Shown: positions 25,178 through 43,808 of the stretch, one piece after another
Position numbering within the stretch: the first letter of the stretch is position 1
How the letters are laid out: each line of letters begins with the position of its first letter
Origin: a virus
Lineage: Duplodnaviria > Caudoviricetes
IMG/VR virus record: IMGVR_UViG_3300047160_003205
Location: 14,845 to 78,844 of that record
DNA: 64,000 nucleotides
Reading direction: 5' to 3' (one strand)
Notes under the pieces: model-generated
Seen by the model: only the letters and a program-made list of their open reading frames with translations
Databases searched by the model: none
Told to the model about the DNA's origin: nothing
Translations under genes and position numbers: made by a program

Positions 25178-25738
25178 ATGTCTGTTGGAAATGACCCTGA
25201 CCGTAAGACGCACGCGGTTGCGGCTACGGGGAAGCCCCTGCGCGGGTATCGGAGTGAGAGGCCATGGCCTGATAATGTGTTTGAGCTAATTTGCCAGGAG
25301 TATGAGGGTTCGAGCAAGGGCATTGACAAAATCTGTGAATCCCATCACGACTGGCCGTCGTATATGACGATTATGCACTGGATGGTAGACGATCCAGAGC
25401 TTCAAGCGCGGATGGAGATTGCTCGCCAAATTCACGCTGACTTCCTGGTCGAAGAGGCAATGATAATTGCCGATGACAAAACCCTCGACATCATTGAGAC
25501 TGAGAAGGGCTTCGTTATCAACAATGCGGCGGTGAACCGCGCCAAGCTTCAGGTTGAAACTCGCAGGTGGACAGCTGGAAAGCTTCATGCTGCGCGATTT
25601 GGCGAGAAGATGGATGTTCGGGGGGCAGGCGTTCAGCTTACCCAAGTCTTTGCTATGCCTAGCAATGGACGGGATGATGATGGGAAAGTGATTGAGGGCG
25701 ATAAGCCCAAATTGCTTCCATTCTCGAAGGATGACTAG
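25178..25738 (+). CDS. terS: Terminase small subunit
   Basis: N-terminal HTH, ARQIHADFLVEEA..IADD, RAKLQVETRRW...KL...FGEK (Sf6/P22-like). Confidence 0.85.
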   Translation: MSVGNDPDRKTHAVAATGKPLRGYRSERPWPDNVFELICQEYEGSSKGIDKICESHHDWPSYMTIMHWMVDDPELQARMEIARQIHADFLVEEAMIIADDKTLDIIETEKGFVINNAAVNRAKLQVETRRWTAGKLHAARFGEKMDVRGAGVQLTQVFAMPSNGRDDDGKVIEGDKPKLLPFSKDD

Positions 25739-28138: not shown

Positions 28139-28180
28139 AGTATAGCTTCGAGACAGCTGTAGCGTCTATGTCTTTCTTTA
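28139..28180 (-). promoter_or_regulatory. Leftward early promoter
   Basis: Minus strand AAAGAAAG-aca-TAGACG-N18-TATACT; same architecture as the plus-strand promoter at 39618-39657. Confidence 0.6.
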
Positions 28181-28193
28181 TCCCAGATACATA

Positions 28194-28449
28194 CACAAAT
28201 TTGGGCGCTTATACAGATACCCATCCAAATTTGGGGCCTGATACAAACACAAATTCTCGTATGTATACGGATGGTATAGTACACACAAATTTGGGCTGTG
28301 TACGGATTACCACACAAATTTGGATTAATGTAAAGCTTTATTAGATGTTAGCTTTATTCATATACGTCCACAAATTTGGTGAGCTAACGTTGTCTATGCC
28401 GGAATTCAGGCACAATGGTGACGCTTAGGCCACAAATTCCACACAAATT
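28194..28449 (+). repeat. CACAAATT(TGG) repeats (8 copies) in an AT-rich non-coding region
   Basis: Copies at 28194, 28226 (CAAATTTGG only), 28248, 28284, 28313, 28369, 28431, 28442. Core CAAATTTG is palindromic. Confidence 0.85.
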
Positions 28450-28561
28450 ACAACAACTTAGCTGACCTGGCTAGGCAATAGTGTCCCGTGGCTAGGTTTG
28501 TTCTTTCGTCCGTATAAGGACTACGGCTCAGCTGTCCCTGGACACTCGCAGATGGGCCCAG

Positions 28562-28611
28562 ACAATCCATCTGCTGACATACAATCCATCTGTTAAAGGA
28601 CAATCCATCTG
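28562..28611 (+). repeat. ACAATCCATCTG x3, 19-bp period
   Basis: Exact copies at 28562, 28581, 28600. Confidence 0.9.
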
Positions 28612-29072
28612 TGTGCCCCGCAGAGCCAGAGGACAGCGGCAGAGGACAGCGAACAGCTGTCTCTGAGCTCTGTCCGCCCCACCAGCGCCCACCAGGCAGG
28701 GCACAGCCGACAGCGCCCATCGGACATGCAGGCAGAGGCCATGCAGACACTAGTACAGTGCAATGCAAGATACCCAGACCCGATCCAGCGCTCAGCCGCG
28801 ACGATCGGTCGCGGTTCACAGGGGCGCGGCGGATCGTCGCGGAACGAAAGGGGAACGAGTATAGACGCCGAGTATTCGTCGCGAATACTTAGGCGAATAC
28901 TTCGAAGGGGGGCGCGGCGAAACGTCGCGGGCCTAGCTCCGCTATAGGGCTTCTCCCCTTCGCCTAGCTCGGCTATATCGGGGGTCCGGTCCGGTCGGAT
29001 CGGGGCTCGGGCCGCTCGGCCCGGGCGGAACGGCTCCCGAAGGGGAGCCCTAGCTAGGTAGGAGAGACCCCT

Positions 29073-29789
29073 ATTTCCGTCTATTCGAACGTCCCCCGCT
29101 ATCCCTTCTCCGGTTTCCGGGGAACCCTCTTCGCCGCCGTTCTCGCGAGCCCGGGCCGCTTCGTCCCGGTCCCGGAAGCGGTCGGGCGCGGCTTTAACGC
29201 GACGACGGCCGCGAAGAAAATTAACCTCCGCTTCGCCCGCGACGCGGCTCCCTTCGAAATCCGGACGCTCGGCCCGGCGAAGGCTCCGACCGAGGTCGGG
29301 CTCTTCGTCGTCGGGGCTATCGGCGAAGGCCGCGTCTCCCGCGATAGCCGCTCGGGCGAGCGGCGAACCGCCGCTAACGACGGCGCCGAAAACTTCGGGA
29401 AGGAACGGATCGTCCCGACGCTCGTCCGCTTCGCCGAGAAGCGCGAGGCCGTTTTCGCCGCTCGCGGCGAACGGATCGAAGCGGCTAAGGCCGTTCTCGC
29501 CGAAGAGGAGGCCGAGGCCGCTCCGGAGGCCGCGCCGCTCGCGCCCGAGGCCGCGCCCGAGGCCGCGCCCGCGCCCGAGGCCGAGGCCGAGGCCGCGCCC
29601 GAGGCCGCGCCCGAGGCCGCGCCCGACGCGCCCGACGCGCCCGAGGCCCCGACCGAGGCCGAGGCCGCGCCCGAGGCTCCCGCGCCCGAGGCCGCTCCGG
29701 AGGCCGAACCGACCGAGGCCGAGGCCGCGCCCGACGCGCCCGAGGCCCCGACCGAGGCCGAGGCCGCGCGCCCGCGTCGCCGCCGCTAA
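29073..29789 (+). CDS. ATT-initiated protein (238 aa): wHTH-like domain, acidic EAAP-repeat tail, RPRRRR end
   Basis: TAGGAGAGAC-N4-ATT; open to TAA 29787-29789; motif spacing shared with ORF 13-450. Absent from the ORF track. Confidence 0.8.
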   Translation: MSVYSNVPRYPFSGFRGTLFAAVLASPGRFVPVPEAVGRGFNATTAAKKINLRFARDAAPFEIRTLGPAKAPTEVGLFVVGAIGEGRVSRDSRSGERRTAANDGAENFGKERIVPTLVRFAEKREAVFAARGERIEAAKAVLAEEEAEAAPEAAPLAPEAAPEAAPAPEAEAEAAPEAAPEAAPDAPDAPEAPTEAEAAPEAPAPEAAPEAEPTEAEAAPDAPEAPTEAEAARPRRRR

Positions 29790-29794
29790 CCCTT

Positions 29795-29820
29795 TCGGGG
29801 GAGGCTCCGGCCTCCCCCGA
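29795..29820 (+). other. Perfect 11-bp hairpin between the two island genes
   Basis: TCGGGGGAGGC-TCCG-GCCTCCCCCGA; no T-tract on either side. Confidence 0.75.
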
Positions 29821-29852
29821 CCCCTTCCCTCGCTCCGATAGGAGAGACGACG

Positions 29853-30044
29853 ATTAAGACGCTCCCGACCCCGACCCCGGAAGCCGCCGCCTTCCGCCTT
29901 CTCGCCCGCCGCGCCGCCTTCGAAGCGGCCCGGCTCCGCGCCGCCGAAACCGGGCGCGCTACCGTCGCGGCGATTTACGCGCCGCGCGGGTTTCGCTCCC
30001 TCGGCGAAGGCGGGTTCCGCGCCTCGCCGGATTACTTCGACTAG
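29853..30044 (+). CDS. ATT-initiated protein (63 aa), Ala/Arg-rich
   Basis: Identical TAGGAGAGAC-N4-ATT context; MKTLPTPTPEAAAFRLLARRAAFEAARLRAAETG...SPDYFD. Confidence 0.7.
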   Translation: MKTLPTPTPEAAAFRLLARRAAFEAARLRAAETGRATVAAIYAPRGFRSLGEGGFRASPDYFD

Positions 30045-30050
30045 CCGCGC

Positions 30051-30122
30051 GCTATACTTCGCGGGCCGGGCGAATACTTCGCTACGGCCCGCGAATACTT
30101 CGCCGACCGCCGCGAATACTTC
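30051..30122 (+). repeat. GCGAATACTTC direct repeats, 21-bp period
   Basis: Exact copies at 30070, 30091, 30112 and a partial copy ending at 30060. Related copies at 28881 and 28893. Confidence 0.9.
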
Positions 30123-30256
30123 ACACACACACCCGGGGGCACGCTTCGCTCCACCACACTGCTTTCCAATGTCGTGAACCTTTGCTGTACACACGGCGCC
30201 ATAGAGCCACACAGTCCCGGAGGATGTAACCCACATTGATGCGGAATTGTACAACT

Positions 30257-30603
30257 TAACCATACCACACCCAACCTCACCCGACCAAGGAGGACCGAAC
30301 CCGACCAAACCCGACCAAACCCCACCTGACCACGTTGTGCCACACCAATCCAAACCTTGCCTCACCGTCCCTTACCAGCAGCAGACCAGACCGTACCTTG
30401 CCACAGCAGGGATTCACCGCACCTTACCACACCGAACCTCACAATAGCATACCTGACCGTACCCGAACAGACCAGACCCCGCCACACCTAATCTTATCAT
30501 ACCACACCTCGCCCAATCAGACCGTGCCGTACCATACCCGATTTTACCAAACCTGACCAGACCACGCCGCATCGGACCAAGCCCGACCACAGGATACCCT
30601 GCC
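30257..30603 (-). ncRNA. GGY-NN pentamer array, candidate guide RNA (VIPR-like)
   Basis: 67 pentamers in three phased blocks (38+5+24), 53 starting GGT/GGC. Begins at the first base after the RAMP gene stop codon. Confidence 0.8.
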
Positions 30604-31233
30604 TTAAGGTTGCGATAGCTCCCACTTAACCACTACGAAGCGTCCGAAGGTTGGCCGCATGTCCCCAAGCCCGACCAAGCGCCCCGCGTCGTCAATCACG
30701 CGCCGAAGAAACACTGGATCGATGTAATCTGACAGTTGCACCATGAACTGGAAGTCTGCTCGCCAGCCAGCCTTGATAGCTGGCCGTGTTCGGGTAACGG
30801 CACCCCGTTGCACCATTGCCCGTCGCCGGTCCTCGTAGTCCCACTTCGTGATTCCCAGCGAGGAGAGGTCATTCAAGCTGATTATGCCAGCACGGAACAG
30901 GTCCATTGCCGACTTTCTGGGCGACCTGGGGTCCTGTTGGAACTTGCTGGCATTGATTATGGAACCTCGCAGGTACTCCCCAGGAATAGAGATTTCCATA
31001 TCAGCATTGCGATAGACATAGGACTCCAAATTGTCAACCTTCTTGGCCTTCGACCCTTTTGGGGCCTTGGCCTTTGCCTCGACCTCATCCGTATTGTAGC
31101 GGTGAAACAACATTGGAGATGACCCCTCTAAGGTCATATCAACAATGTAGGGGACGCTCGCCTGAATAACGGGTTCGCCCCCATTGGAGGCTTGCTCCTC
31201 GGCTAGGTTAAGCAATTTGTCTCGGTTCAACAT
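30604..31233 (-). CDS. Solitary Cas7/RAMP-like protein (Vipr-like)
   Basis: IVDMTLEGSSPMLFH (RRM beta1), ISIPGEYLRGSII (like IPGSSLKG), C-terminal Gly loop GRLVGLGDMRPTFGRF. Start MLNRDK with RBS GAAGGGGG; alternative start 31269. Confidence 0.75.
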   Translation of the reverse strand: MLNRDKLLNLAEEQASNGGEPVIQASVPYIVDMTLEGSSPMLFHRYNTDEVEAKAKAPKGSKAKKVDNLESYVYRNADMEISIPGEYLRGSIINASKFQQDPRSPRKSAMDLFRAGIISLNDLSSLGITKWDYEDRRRAMVQRGAVTRTRPAIKAGWRADFQFMVQLSDYIDPVFLRRVIDDAGRLVGLGDMRPTFGRFVVVKWELSQP

Positions 31234-31272
31234 CGCCCCCTTCATTGGTTGTTGGTCCTTCCTCCCCAAACA

Positions 31273-33165: not shown

Positions 33166-33397
33166 GGATCCAGCTATCAGCGACCATCCGCATGAAAAAG
33201 CTTATGGAGAGACGTAGCTTGTGGGCGGCGTCCCGCACAGCGACAAACTCTCCGGGTGGGAAGTAGACACTAACTGCCACTGTCCTATCCTTCCCGGCCT
33301 CCAGTTTTCGCTGGAGTGCCTCTTGTCCAAGACTCCGCCGATTGTAGGGACGTTTCATCTCCGTTACGCTCCGTCCCCCTAGTCTAGTTGAAAACAA
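33149..33397 (-). CDS. Ribbon-helix-helix-like protein
   Basis: VSVYFPPGEFVAVRDAAHKLRLSISFFMR. Confidence 0.45.
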   Translation of the reverse strand: MFSTRLGGRSVTEMKRPYNRRSLGQEALQRKLEAGKDRTVAVSVYFPPGEFVAVRDAAHKLRLSISFFMRMVADSWIRDHAK

Positions 33398-35112
33398 AAA
33401 GAAAGTCGATGACCCGAGGAATTGTCGCGTGGCCTACATGGGGAAACACGAACTTTGTTGGCCAGTACCAGGCCGAGGAGTGGCCTGAGCCCCCGGAAGA
33501 CTGGGAGGCTACCCCGCAGCACGACCCGGAAGCTTTCAATGGCAGTGACCTTCCTCCCGAGAGCGACGCAATTCTGGCGGATGACACGGAGGAGGTGTAC
33601 CATCCCGGTCTTCACTCCTACGAGGGCGACAAGGGCTACGAGGACCCCGCTGAACTGACGGTCCTGAAGAGACGGCACGGGCCACTGAATGTGACGGCTC
33701 CTCAGCCGGGTCCCCAGATGAGGTTCCTGACGACGGCGGCTGACATCGCCATCTATGGCGGGGCGGCGGGCGGCGGGAAGACATGGGCGCTGTTGTTCGA
33801 GGCGTCCCGGCACATTAAGAACCCCTACTATGGCGCCGTCATCTTCCGCCGTACCAGTGTGCAAGTCCGGAATGAGGGTGGCCTGTGGGATGAATCTCTC
33901 CGCATGTACCCCGGCCTGGGCGGGGCTCCCCGCGAGCATGACCTTTGGTGGAAGTTCCCGTCCGGGTCCAATATCTCCTTCGCCCACCTGGAGCACGATA
34001 AGAATGCTCACGACTATCAGGGGGCACAGATCCCACTGATCGCCTTCGATGAGCTGACACACTTCACGGAAGCCCAGTTCTGGTACATGGTTAGCCGGAA
34101 CCGCTCCACATGTGGGGTGAAACCCTACATCCGTGCTACGTGCAACCCTGACGTTGACAGCTGGGTGGCAAAGTTTATTTCCTGGTGGATAAACCAGGAC
34201 ACTGGCTATGCTTACCCGGAGCGTGCGGGAAAGCTTCGGTACTTTGTCCGCATTGGTGATAAGCTCCACTGGGCATCTGACCCTAAAGCTCTGTCCCGCT
34301 TCCGCAATCCAGTAGACGGGAAGCCCATCAAGCCCAAGTCTGCCACCTTCATCCCGTCTAAGCTCACCGACAACAAGGTCCTGACCGAGTCCGACCCGGG
34401 GTATATGGCGAACCTGTTGGCGCTCCCTCTCGTGGAGAGGGAGCGGTTGCTGAATGGTAACTGGAAGATACGGTGGACGGGTCAACAATTCTTCAATGTC
34501 CAGAACCTACTCGTGAACGGGAGGCCGGTGGCGAACCCCACCAATACGGACAGTGTCTTCGCTGTACTCGACACAGCAAGTAAGACTGGTCATCAACACG
34601 ATGGCACGGCTGTCGTCTGGGTTGCGAAGAACAAGTACACTGGATATCCGCTGACGATACTGGATTGGGAGACGCTGCAGATCAGCGGGAACCTGTTGGA
34701 GAAGTGGTTGCCGTCCGTTTTTATACATGGTGAGAGACTGGCTCGTCGTTACGGCGCACGCGAAGGGTTCGTGGGTGCTTGGATTGAGGACAAGCAATCC
34801 GGAACCATTCTCCTTCAACAGGCACGTCGGCGGAACTTCAACGTCTTCCCGATTGAATCCAAGCTGACCCTCTTGGGCAAGGACGAACGCGCACTGAGTG
34901 TGAGTGGGTATGTTGGAACGGGGAAGGTCAAGGTAGCTGAAACCGCCTTCAATAAGACCCTCACCTATAAGGACATAACGCGGAATCATTTTCTCTCCCA
35001 GGTTGAAAGTTTCTCTATTGCCGACCCGGACAATAAGTCCCGGGCCGATGATTTGCTCGATTGCTTCTGCTACGCTGTCGCTATCGGCCTCGGCGATTGG
35101 GAAGGGTTCTGA
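33388..35112 (+). CDS. terL: Terminase large subunit
   Basis: YGGAAGGGKT (Walker A), FDELTHF (Walker B), RATCNP, DTASK, DDLLD nuclease motifs; acidic N-terminal extension. Confidence 0.93.
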   Translation: MKTKRKSMTRGIVAWPTWGNTNFVGQYQAEEWPEPPEDWEATPQHDPEAFNGSDLPPESDAILADDTEEVYHPGLHSYEGDKGYEDPAELTVLKRRHGPLNVTAPQPGPQMRFLTTAADIAIYGGAAGGGKTWALLFEASRHIKNPYYGAVIFRRTSVQVRNEGGLWDESLRMYPGLGGAPREHDLWWKFPSGSNISFAHLEHDKNAHDYQGAQIPLIAFDELTHFTEAQFWYMVSRNRSTCGVKPYIRATCNPDVDSWVAKFISWWINQDTGYAYPERAGKLRYFVRIGDKLHWASDPKALSRFRNPVDGKPIKPKSATFIPSKLTDNKVLTESDPGYMANLLALPLVERERLLNGNWKIRWTGQQFFNVQNLLVNGRPVANPTNTDSVFAVLDTASKTGHQHDGTAVVWVAKNKYTGYPLTILDWETLQISGNLLEKWLPSVFIHGERLARRYGAREGFVGAWIEDKQSGTILLQQARRRNFNVFPIESKLTLLGKDERALSVSGYVGTGKVKVAETAFNKTLTYKDITRNHFLSQVESFSIADPDNKSRADDLLDCFCYAVAIGLGDWEGF

Positions 35113-42215: not shown

Positions 42216-43808
42216 ATGGCAGAATTATCGGCCAACGGCTTAACATCCTCGCTTCAGGATTTGATCGACAATGGCGATATAAAGCCAGGCGAATCAATCA
42301 GTTACCAACTTTGTAAGGACCTTTACATCTATCACCCAATGGGGGCCAAGCTCGTGGATGCCCCTATCGCATTAGCCCAGACCCAAGAGCGTGAGATCGC
42401 CGTTCCGGCAGGGCCGGAAAGCCGTCTTATTGAGGCTTTCGAGCGCGAGTGGGAGGAGCTAAATGCTGACCGCTACATCGCGAATATTGCGCGATTGGCT
42501 CGGGTTTATGGGATTGCTTCTATTGCTGTCATTATTGATGGTGTTAAGGCGAGTACGCCCCTCGAATACAGCAAGCTCTATAAGCAATCGATCACGTTCT
42601 CGTGCTTCGACCCGCTGAATACGTCTGGTTCTTTCGTCCTTAATCAAGACCCCTTGGCCATTGACTTCCTGAAAATCATGGACATTCGGGTCCAAGGTGA
42701 AGCTTTTCACCGATCCAGGTTCGTGGCTATACAGAACGAAGACCCAATCTATATTGCGTTTAACACATCTTCTTTCGGTTTTACTGGCCGTTCTATTTAC
42801 CAACGGGCGCTGTTCCCGTTGAAGTCGTTTATCCAAACAATGTTGACTGATGACTTGGTGGCATACAAAGCTGGGGTTATTGTCACTAAGATACGCCAGC
42901 CAGGCAGTATCATTGACAAGGCAATGAGCTATATTGCCGGCCTCAAGCGAATGTTCGTGAAGGTCGCGGCAGTCGGCAACATCATCAGCATCGCCCCGGA
43001 CGAGGCGATTGAGACATTGAACTTCCAGAACCTCCACAATCCCTTCCAGATGGCTCGCAAGAACATCATTGACAATATAGCCTCAGCGGCGGGGATGCCG
43101 GCCCTCATCATCAATGAGGAGCCCCTCACGGATGGGTTCGGGGAAGGCATCGAGGACGCGAAGAAGATTGCCCAGTGCATCAACGGCATCCGCTTGTGGA
43201 TGCAACCATTGTATGCCTTCTTCGACAAGATCACTATGCATCGCGCATGGAATGAGGACTTCTATGCGGCGATCCAGCGGGACTTCCCCGAGGAGTATGG
43301 CGATAAGGACTACAACACGGCGTTCTATGAGTGGACCAATTCGTTTGATGCTATCTGGCCAAACCTCATCCAGGAGCCTGATAGTGACAAGGTGATGGTC
43401 GCCCACGTCAAGTTGAAGGCGGCGATTGAGCTGTTGGAGGTTTTGACGCCCCTCGTGGACCCGGAGAACAAGGCCCGTGTGATCCAGGCGACGATGGACA
43501 ACATCAATGCCATGAAGGACATGTTCTCGACGCCGTTCGAACTGGACTATGATGCGATCGCAGAGTACGTGCCGCCTGAACAGGAGATGATGCTCGCTAA
43601 GCAGGAAGGCGCGTTCGGGGGTGGTAATGGCGCAGCAGGCCCACCGAAGCCCAAACCACCGAACCCGATGCAGGATCGAATCAAGGGTAAGACTGACTCC
43701 AGCACCGCCGTCGCGGACCTGGCAGCGTACCAGAAGAAGATTAGGGATTCCAGACATTTTAGGAAACCGAGCCCCCGACTCACCTATGGCGACAGCAGCA
43801 ATGTATAG
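42216..43808 (+). CDS. Portal protein (DUF1073/Acb1-like family)
   Basis: ARVYGIA, FHRSRF, GFTGRS, IASAAGMP; first gene of the head operon. Confidence 0.85.
   Translation: MAELSANGLTSSLQDLIDNGDIKPGESISYQLCKDLYIYHPMGAKLVDAPIALAQTQEREIAVPAGPESRLIEAFEREWEELNADRYIANIARLARVYGIASIAVIIDGVKASTPLEYSKLYKQSITFSCFDPLNTSGSFVLNQDPLAIDFLKIMDIRVQGEAFHRSRFVAIQNEDPIYIAFNTSSFGFTGRSIYQRALFPLKSFIQTMLTDDLVAYKAGVIVTKIRQPGSIIDKAMSYIAGLKRMFVKVAAVGNIISIAPDEAIETLNFQNLHNPFQMARKNIIDNIASAAGMPALIINEEPLTDGFGEGIEDAKKIAQCINGIRLWMQPLYAFFDKITMHRAWNEDFYAAIQRDFPEEYGDKDYNTAFYEWTNSFDAIWPNLIQEPDSDKVMVAHVKLKAAIELLEVLTPLVDPENKARVIQATMDNINAMKDMFSTPFELDYDAIAEYVPPEQEMMLAKQEGAFGGGNGAAGPPKPKPPNPMQDRIKGKTDSSTAVADLAAYQKKIRDSRHFRKPSPRLTYGDSSNV

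Follow-up and report, generated by a model that had tools for sequence, protein, structure and literature searches.

A complete 78,844-bp phage record in IMG/VR (IMGVR_UViG_3300047160_003205), of which a window of 64,000 nt was analysed and supplies the coordinates used below, carries a 1303-bp island at 28820-30122 in which neither CA nor its reverse complement TG occurs. The count of zero was obtained on recounting, and the remaining 14 dinucleotides are all found inside the same interval. The island makes up a self-contained expression cassette, with putative operators and a putative promoter at its head and terminal hairpins at its end, and cassettes of this CA/TG-free kind are conserved across a family of soil phages. 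Comparison of these cassettes indicates that purifying selection excludes every CA/TG step, on both strands and in coding and non-coding DNA alike. The explanation preferred here, to which an even chance of being correct would be given, is target-site avoidance, by which an immediate-early cassette escapes a factor that reads CA/TG on the DNA template.

A preliminary description, made from the letters alone, had reported a complete void with sharp edges, some 100 missing sites and a reach over coding and non-coding DNA which codon bias would not explain. The recount, which might have returned normal CA/TG levels, bears all of this out. The last CA before the island lies at 28819-28820 and the next at 30122-30123 (the left edge reads TTCACA/GGGG and the right edge CTT/CACACACACA, a slash marking the edge itself), and CA/TG is more frequent in both flanks than their composition predicts. 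Over the 78,844-bp genome CA/TG occurs at a rate of 0.1216 per step, for which a void of 1302 independent steps has a probability of ~1e-73, and mononucleotide shuffling of the island's own bases leaves 130 +/- 9 sites (minimum 99 in 2000 trials), so that chance is no explanation. The second-longest CA/TG gap in the genome is 59 bp, none of the other symmetric dinucleotides has a gap there of more than 363 bp, and the longest CA/TG gap in 35 other phage loci (408 kb, G+C content 24-71%) is 105 bp. In the rest of the phage genome the observed-to-expected ratio of CA/TG is 0.98, against none of about 130 in the island. The island is richer in G+C than the genome (73% versus 55%), and CG and TA are over-represented in it (observed-to-expected ratios of 1.46 and 1.52). 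The rule is absolute for CA/TG only, AC/GT being slightly low and no trinucleotide otherwise missing. The void takes in non-coding DNA, two coding regions and all of their codon junctions; codon bias fails as an explanation because the choice of codon at a junction depends on the neighbouring codon and because the non-coding DNA is void too.

An artefact, in the form of an assembly or sequencing error or a chimeric insertion, might be suspected from the unusual composition and from the absence of any match among GenBank phages by megablast or blastn, but its probability is close to negligible. Most of a 2.4-kb stretch around the island is contained in 24 public soil-metagenome runs, and no RNA run was among the public runs listed with it. 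Contigs from four other, independent runs, which extend from 28300 or 28715 to 29569 and from 29740 to 30202-30397, show no differences and span both island junctions, and short-read unitigs are interrupted only at an internal repeat encoding Ala, Glu and Pro (A/E/P). As both junctions are bridged without a single difference in these four runs, the void is not an assembly artefact. Homologous voids in independent JGI and ENA assemblies argue in the same direction.

These homologous voids were found through ORF-A, the first of two open reading frames in the island. The window phage (WIN) was compared with other loci, numbered L002-L042. A full HMMER scan with the N-terminal domain of ORF-A recovered three homologues (E-values 1e-39 to 1e-20) and a profile (word-index) search two more, placing homologues in L037, L038, L039, L040 and L041/L042, which come from different JGI and ENA samples. 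All of these loci are CA/TG voids or are strongly depleted around the ORF-A homologue. The genes within the voids share 45-75% amino-acid identity and differ at 97-198 positions per ~390 aligned nucleotides. In L038, L040 and L041/L042 the only CA/TG of the ORF-A-family gene is the TG of its ATG start codon, and the surrounding voids measure at least 826, at least 935 and at least 1030 bp, respectively. The void of L037 is complete over 777 bp and holds a paralogue missed by gene callers, with a Shine-Dalgarno AGGAGG and an ATC start. The genes that need to be told apart are as follows.

L037:1645-2148, minus strand: void paralogue of L037, ATC start, free of CA/TG.
L037:3208-3900, plus strand: normal paralogue of L037, ATG start, CA/TG observed-to-expected ratio 0.75.
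L041:828-1112, plus strand: second void gene of L041, 94 amino acids, Shine-Dalgarno AGGAGG and ATT start, unrelated to ORF-B, the second gene of the window island.

The two paralogues of L037 lie 1 kb apart, on either side of an iteron field and CAGATGGATTG repeat types. Since the second gene of L041 is unrelated to ORF-B, the islands would seem to carry variable cargo. L039 is intermediate, with a CA/TG ratio of 0.28; its leftover sites fall mostly in GCA or CAA codons or at junctions between codons, and as these are mostly synonymous or junctional, L039 looks like a probable case of relaxation from a void ancestor. Relatives gathered through the large terminase subunit TerL (L002-L007) have no void, and loci retrieved by a GAATACTTC-repeat pattern (L008-L023) proved to be chance matches, likewise without one. 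Translated scans of the tblastn type with ORF-A or its alignment returned nothing from viral_contigs, metagenome_contigs and genome_contigs, nor did a codon-aligned antisense open reading frame used as a query for uncalled islands of the ATT type. L037 is syntenic with the window in its primase, small terminase subunit (TerS) and small genes. The 6-bp direct repeat TTCACA at the two edges of the window island was considered as a target-site duplication and dropped, the repeat being absent from this syntenic locus.

A third of all possible point changes in the voids, and 37-44% of transitions, would create CA/TG, and none has been fixed; because the void has been kept through divergence to 45-75% identity, its state has been held by selection. 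The codon junctions point the same way. Among two-fold codons ending in a pyrimidine, the void genes have 22 T to 0 C before codons that start with A and 0 T to 82 C before codons that start with G, and 74% end in C in other contexts, whereas normal genes of the same phages have 33 T to 80 C before A and 74 T to 66 C before G (Fisher 5e-23). Relative to normal homologues, the void copies have W, M, Q and H replaced by F/Y, V/L/I, R/K and R, respectively. The normal copies are likewise poor in M, H, Q, C and W, which suggests that they may descend from void-type ancestors. On this evidence, a long-term purifying selection is acting on the nucleic acid itself and not on the codons.

A mutational process, in which local hypermutation or biased repair converts CA/TG to CG or TA (for example transcription-coupled deamination or repair of T:G to C:G), would account for the enrichment of CG and TA across the islands (observed-to-expected ratios of 1.2-1.5 and 1.5-1.7), as expected from CA/TG transitions, and for edges which coincide with a transcription unit. 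It is nevertheless very improbable. Protein function appears preserved at 45-75% identity, ATT or ATC stands at an identical Shine-Dalgarno spacing in two genes and ATG is kept where present, codons ending in T occur exactly where an ending in C would make CA, and a process leaving none of about 130 sites would need, across five lineages, to be several hundred times faster than mutation. Repeat-induced point mutation (RIP) and deaminase hypermutation resemble the island in that CA/TG is lost and TA or CG gained. They differ from it in that the island genes are intact and conserved, the G+C content is high and the synonymous choices are adaptive; in place of the pseudogene decay typical of RIP, there are 34 invariant columns across seven ORF-A homologues, a periodicity of G+C at third codon positions, and intact Shine-Dalgarno sequences and ATT, ATC or ATG starts.

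The cassette sits in a gene-poor zone of 2.5 kb between leftward replication and early genes (a DnaE-type polymerase, a primase and a TerS-like gene at 25178-25738) and rightward packaging and structural genes (TerL at 33388-35112, portal at 42216). Its elements and their immediate surroundings are given below in order, with the strand where one applies.

28180-28611: AT-rich iteron field of ACACAAATTTGG (5-6 copies), with GACAATCCATCTG in three copies; these repeat types recur in the flanks of the L037 island.
28796-28814: perfect palindrome CCGCGAC-GATC-GGTCGCGG, just beyond the left edge; the first of three related operator-like sites, with a putative operator role.
28820-30122: the CA/TG-free island, from the dinucleotide recount.
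28825-28842: inverted repeat CGCGGCG-GAT-CGTCGCG(G), with a 7-bp stem and a 3-nt loop; second operator-like site or hairpin.
28862-28889, plus strand: promoter-like TAGACG-N16-AATACT, a consensus guess with a putative function.
28881-28904, plus strand: two GCGAATACTT(C) units, with an inverted GAGTATTCG at 28870; putative hairpin units.
28913-28930: inverted repeat CGCGGCG-AAA-CGTCGCGG; third operator-like site or hairpin.
29032-29049, plus strand: hairpin GGCTCCC-GAAG-GGGAGCC (GNRA-type loop); the ORF-A Shine-Dalgarno follows 10 nt downstream.
29060-29068, plus strand: strong Shine-Dalgarno AGGAGAGAC of ORF-A, with ATT 13 nt after its first base.
29073-29789, plus strand: ORF-A, 238 amino acids, ATT start, recognised by coding periodicity and homologues.
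29797-29818, plus strand: hairpin GGGGGAGGC-TCCG-GCCTCCCCC, after the ORF-A stop codon.
29840-29848, plus strand: second Shine-Dalgarno, identical (AGGAGAGAC), again with a 13-nt offset to ATT.
29853-30044, plus strand: ORF-B, 63 amino acids, ATT start, Ala/Arg-rich, recognised by coding periodicity.
30052-30122, plus strand: four (C/G)(T/A)ATACTTC units in 21-nt phase, at the 3' end of the cassette.
30122-30139: boundary element (CA)5-CCC-GGGGG; the islands of L040 and L037 conserve it on their terminase side.
30186-30255: TGTACA / TTGTACAAC palindromes, common to the L037 flank; operator-like.

As the island has no CA/TG, no ATG, GTG, TTG or CTG start is available on either of its strands. 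The two frames have G+C contents by codon position of 0.69/0.55/0.82 and 0.72/0.64/0.84, with G-rich first positions. The promoter-like TAGACG-N16-AATACT resembles a leftward early promoter-like sequence of the same phage, TAGACG-N18-TATACT at 28168-28139 on the minus strand, and reads as a putative CA/TG-free stand-in for TTGACA/TATAAT. The GCGAATACTT units are present at both ends of the island, and the full unit GCGAA-TAC-TTCGC is able to form a 5-bp hairpin. The 3' end of the cassette holds a 17-bp hairpin at about 30058-30095 with a folding z-score of -3.3, and CGCGACGA..TC repeats upstream of the L037 island resemble the palindrome at 28796-28814. No Rfam family matched in the island. 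It may also be observed that the phage's promoter-like sites, TAGACG-N16/18-(T/A)ATACT, contain no CA/TG themselves, and that a near-palindromic CGAA-TAC-TTCG unit stands at both ends of the island (28881-28904 and 30052-30122), with a counterpart at 1292-1301 of L040.

The limits of the voids coincide with those of an expression unit. The void of L038 stops at the first base beyond the T-run of a terminator (GGGCCCTTTTTT/CACC), in L040 it ends 17 nt past a terminator, and in L039 the depletion ends at a terminator, all of these being hairpins of the intrinsic-terminator type. The voids of L037 and WIN end after terminal hairpins; a terminator scan of the window island found no consensus terminator. 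Promoter-like and UP-like sequence lies inside the voids as well (upstream of TAGACG, 42 nt in the window phage and 33 nt in L037). The void is a promoter-to-terminator unit, with the promoters assigned by consensus guesses. If these assignments are right, the constraint extends to untranscribed DNA, and a reader acting at the level of DNA is favoured.

By contrast, avoidance at the level of RNA would have the transcripts escape an endoribonuclease or RNA-modifying enzyme acting at CA and/or UG, whether as host abortive infection or as phage shut-off. This is unlikely. ACA-less mRNAs resist MazF, and T4 RegB (GGAG) offers a similar case with its site-poor transcripts. The likeness is that a transcript stays functional because the nuclease site is missing; the difference is that MazF and RegB read strand-specific RNA motifs of 3 to 4 nt, whereas the reverse complement is equally absent from the island and putative promoter DNA is included. 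A loss of the motif from the sense strand only, as with MazF, is not what is seen, CA and TG both being zero. An RNA reader would have to combine two unrelated specificities, or else both strands would have to give essential transcripts, and the void includes putative promoter- or operator-like DNA, which would lie 40-80 nt upstream of the likely start. The idea draws some strength from the void stopping right after terminators, which matches a transcription unit, from a per-site cost that tolerates one AUG, which fits stochastic cleavage or modification, and from the existence of a dinucleotide-specific defence that targets mRNA, the enzyme CmdT, which reads GA (PMC11618068).

The protein common to the islands, ORF-A, contains no M, H, Q, C or W residues and is the sole copy in the window phage genome. 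It consists of an N-terminal domain, an acidic A/E/P repeat tail and a C-terminal RPRRRR, and its family has the same build: a conserved domain of ~140 amino acids, an acidic Ala/Glu/Pro-rich tail and an Arg-rich C-terminus (RRRR, RRERRR). ORF-A is, to judge from this conservation, a real protein family, and its many invariant Arg and Lys residues and Arg-rich C-terminus point to a probable binding of nucleic acid. The C-terminus may resemble the arginine-rich RNA-binding motifs of lambdoid N proteins. An AlphaFold model built from seven sequences (pLDDT 73) has a weak winged-helix resemblance over the first 80 residues, to ScpB and to the OmpR/PhoB-type proteins BaeR, GlnR and PrrA (Z 4.6-4.7). 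No sequence-profile match to a winged helix was obtained for the N-terminal domain, and a Foldseek search of ORF-A against PDB and BFVD gave nothing significant. Neither ORF-A nor ORF-B matched Pfam, PHROG, PADLOC or PDB sequences or had a usable ESM Atlas hit, and no homologue of ORF-B was found in the related loci. From the winged-helix-like domain, acidic tail and Arg-rich C-terminus we infer that ORF-A may be a regulator-like protein which binds nucleic acid; as to an anti-defence role, the acidic tail is only suggestive.

Such a protein could by itself be the factor avoided, if ORF-A were to bind or act on CA/TG-rich DNA, nucleating on the enriched flanks and silencing or coating the DNA whilst its own gene, being site-free, stays expressed. 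Self-immunity of this kind alone is quite unlikely. The ORF-A family is present in all six islands, its modelled winged-helix-like fold and its many conserved Arg and Lys residues would suit a DNA-binding protein, the flanks are enriched in CA/TG, including (CA)5, and the normal paralogue of L037 could be autoregulated. A specificity of ORF-A for CA/TG is, however, conjectural, the phage's other genes contain CA/TG and would be silenced as well, and the second genes of the islands differ among lineages.

The position of the cassette bears on when it might be expressed. The islands of L039 and L040 are placed immediately upstream of TerL, from which they diverge, and a boundary on the TerL side, ..GTGCCCCC(GGG/C)(TG)4-5.., is common to WIN (reverse strand), L040 and L037, the void starting immediately after it. 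In WIN this boundary and TerL are separated by an insertion of about 2.9 kb, made up of a VIPR module and small genes. The window's TerS-like gene is homologous to the Sf6_terminase genes of L037 and L039. In cos phages, the DNA opposite terL across the packaging site is the last to be packaged and the first to be ejected. Since the cassette adjoins the conserved (TG)n/C-run element on the large-terminase side, it fits, by analogy, a position at the packaging site or genome end, possibly the first-entering end. As observations on the arrangement itself, 7.6 kb separate the TerS-like gene of the window from its TerL, a distance that takes in the iterons, the island and the VIPR module, and in L040 the cassette faces the other way with respect to the conserved (TG)n boundary, so that the cassette may be able to invert.

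Target-site avoidance takes the void, its conservation, the selection at synonymous and junction sites and the extent from promoter region to terminator as its observed basis; to these it adds the existence and nature of a CA/TG reader, an early timing, an order of entry and a protein function, which we infer. Some factor would read CA/TG, most probably on DNA that serves as transcription template, and each site would lower the expression of the cassette slightly. If the cassette needs to be expressed while the factor is active, selection would have removed all sites, to the point where even ATG was swapped for ATT or ATC in two lineages; in some lineages an ATG start would be worth more than the cost of its one site, and in others less. 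The factor might be a defence of the host or of a rival phage which the products of the cassette counter, or one of those products, with self-immunity by site avoidance. That every single CA/TG step appears costly on either strand fits a stochastic per-site hit on expression, in which the site is bound, nicked, modified or cleaved. Were the reader to destroy DNA, the phage would still die of the sites in its remaining genome, so that a reader which is reversible, limited in time (by exposure of the leading end) or restricted to expression is more likely. The preliminary description had offered as one of its two explanations a segment that enters the cell first and avoids a host defence recognising TG/CA until its products act. 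It comes closest of the two to the comparative data: a cassette-wide void, conserved by selection in relatives and set beside the terminase-side boundary element, agrees with it, and the entry order, the defence and the anti-defence function are retained here as conditional parts.

Several points weigh against target-site avoidance. No CA/TG-specific nuclease, modifier or binder was identified in this analysis, and literature searches found no CA/TG-specific defence or reader. With a CA/TG ratio of 0.98 in the rest of the genome, a DNA-destroying reader would still be lethal unless timing or reversibility protects. The promoter and transcription start are consensus guesses, which may leave room for a purely RNA-level constraint, and the fold match of ORF-A is weak (Z at most 4.7), the function of the protein being a predicted one. 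The relatives carry a TerS of the Sf6 type, which is often linked with headful packaging and hence with no fixed first-entering end, and WIN/L037 and L040 do not have the cassette in the same orientation to the boundary.

The other explanation in the preliminary description was that the phage modifies its DNA in a TG/CA context and that this segment must stay unmodified for host RNA polymerase, replication or packaging; it is considered here as hypermodification by the phage, with the cassette left unmodified for immediate use by host RNA polymerase or a DNA-binding protein. This gained no positive support and is quite improbable. The genome does carry the cluster of ThyX, SDR, HAD and flavoenzyme genes to which the suggestion appealed, and dinucleotide-context modifications of phage DNA exist, such as deazaguanine at GA in phage CAjan and partial thymidine hypermodifications. 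The cluster, made up of ThyX, SDR, an HAD-PNKP phosphatase and a DnaQ-like exonuclease, consists however of families of ordinary nucleotide metabolism, and neither an N6/N4 or C5 methyltransferase nor TGT/DpdA was found in the genome (PF01555, PF00145 and PF01702 are absent). Other early genes, behind TAGACG-N18-TATACT, would need to be transcribed too and have normal CA/TG, and to our knowledge no hypermodified phage keeps an unmodified island.

Avoidance as a strategy has precedents. The first-step-transfer DNA of T5 has no EcoRI sites, and the early region of T7 carries ocr. Motif-free leading regions govern susceptibility to Type I restriction-modification, as in the early regions of Murciavirus (PMC12455610). 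The island resembles these systems in being a short region that would have to be expressed first and lacks a motif which the remaining genome has, and in being a variable region, with putative early or anti-defence genes, beside packaging genes. It differs from them in that the avoided word is a dinucleotide, so that codons, amino-acid content and start codons are reshaped, and in that its first entry is proposed from its position beside the TerL/(TG)n boundary. CpG suppression in vertebrate RNA viruses counters ZAP. Together with CmdT this illustrates that immune factors can read a dinucleotide and that viruses can respond by composition; their depletion is, however, genome-wide or partial or, for CmdT, none is reported, whereas the purge in the island is absolute, confined to one cassette and applied to both strands. 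A DarT-type enzyme, which ADP-ribosylates single-stranded DNA, was rejected as the reader, DarT1 having no consensus motif and the DarT2 motifs being T-rich tetramers. Anthracycline-type intercalators, which prefer CA steps, were set aside, CG steps also being good sites for them and yet enriched here.

No dinucleotide-free phage cassette was found described in the literature searches; the avoidance strategy is already known, and the scale, symmetry, completeness and coding consequences are new, as is the reader that they imply. Motif avoidance has been known for restriction sites of 4 to 8 bp and, for CpG in animal viruses, as a statistical bias. Here the purge is absolute, cassette-wide and kept through deep divergence, five amino acids and the canonical starts have been removed, and natural genes are left with ATT or ATC starts and an amino-acid alphabet of 15 letters. 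This would imply a reader of CA/TG outside the current catalogue of defence and counter-defence. A bolder version, possible but rather doubtful, is that an undescribed mechanism of soil bacteria or rival phages recognises bare CA/TG in the DNA of an incoming phage or in its transcripts and blocks expression one site at a time, and that phages have answered with a dinucleotide-free, ATT- or ATC-started immediate-early cassette at the genome end, beside the packaging site, whose product neutralises the mechanism. If true, it would be the first bacterial parallel to dinucleotide immunity of the CpG/ZAP type, and CA/TG-free sequence would provide a handle for finding the reader. Furthermore, the void suggests an alignment-free search, in which long dinucleotide voids serve as a marker of phage genes that must be expressed first.

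On its right the island adjoins a module which might be thought to be connected with it.

30257-30603, minus strand: array of GGY-NN pentamers, ~53 units in blocks with short breaks, 135 bp from the island.
30604-31269, minus strand: Vipr gene, RAMP-like, PHROG 4652, assigned by family match.

The Vipr gene and array are kept in 13 other viral contigs whose flanks are otherwise unrelated, and thus behave as a presumptive mobile module. VIPR silences regulators of rival phages through DNA binding and has no requirement for a protospacer-adjacent motif (PAM) or a dinucleotide (bioRxiv 10.64898/2026.04.26.720920,.720927). The likeness to the island is one of proximity, the Vipr gene and array lying 135 bp away; the difference is that VIPR needs no dinucleotide, that the 13 Vipr relatives have the array and no void, and that the islands of L037, L039 and L040 have no vipr beside them. 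Because a dinucleotide need and co-occurrence are both lacking, VIPR is, as far as these distributions indicate, a separate insertion, independent of the void. A T7-like RNA polymerase was not found in the genome despite CTATAGGG-like motifs, although the control query for this family likewise matched nowhere. The interval 30122-30600 has, on the plus strand, a GC skew down to -0.45 and is rich in C and A and poor in G, and a rightward transcript from the island would be C-rich and G-poor here, in the manner of a Rho-loading site, and antisense to the vrRNA array.

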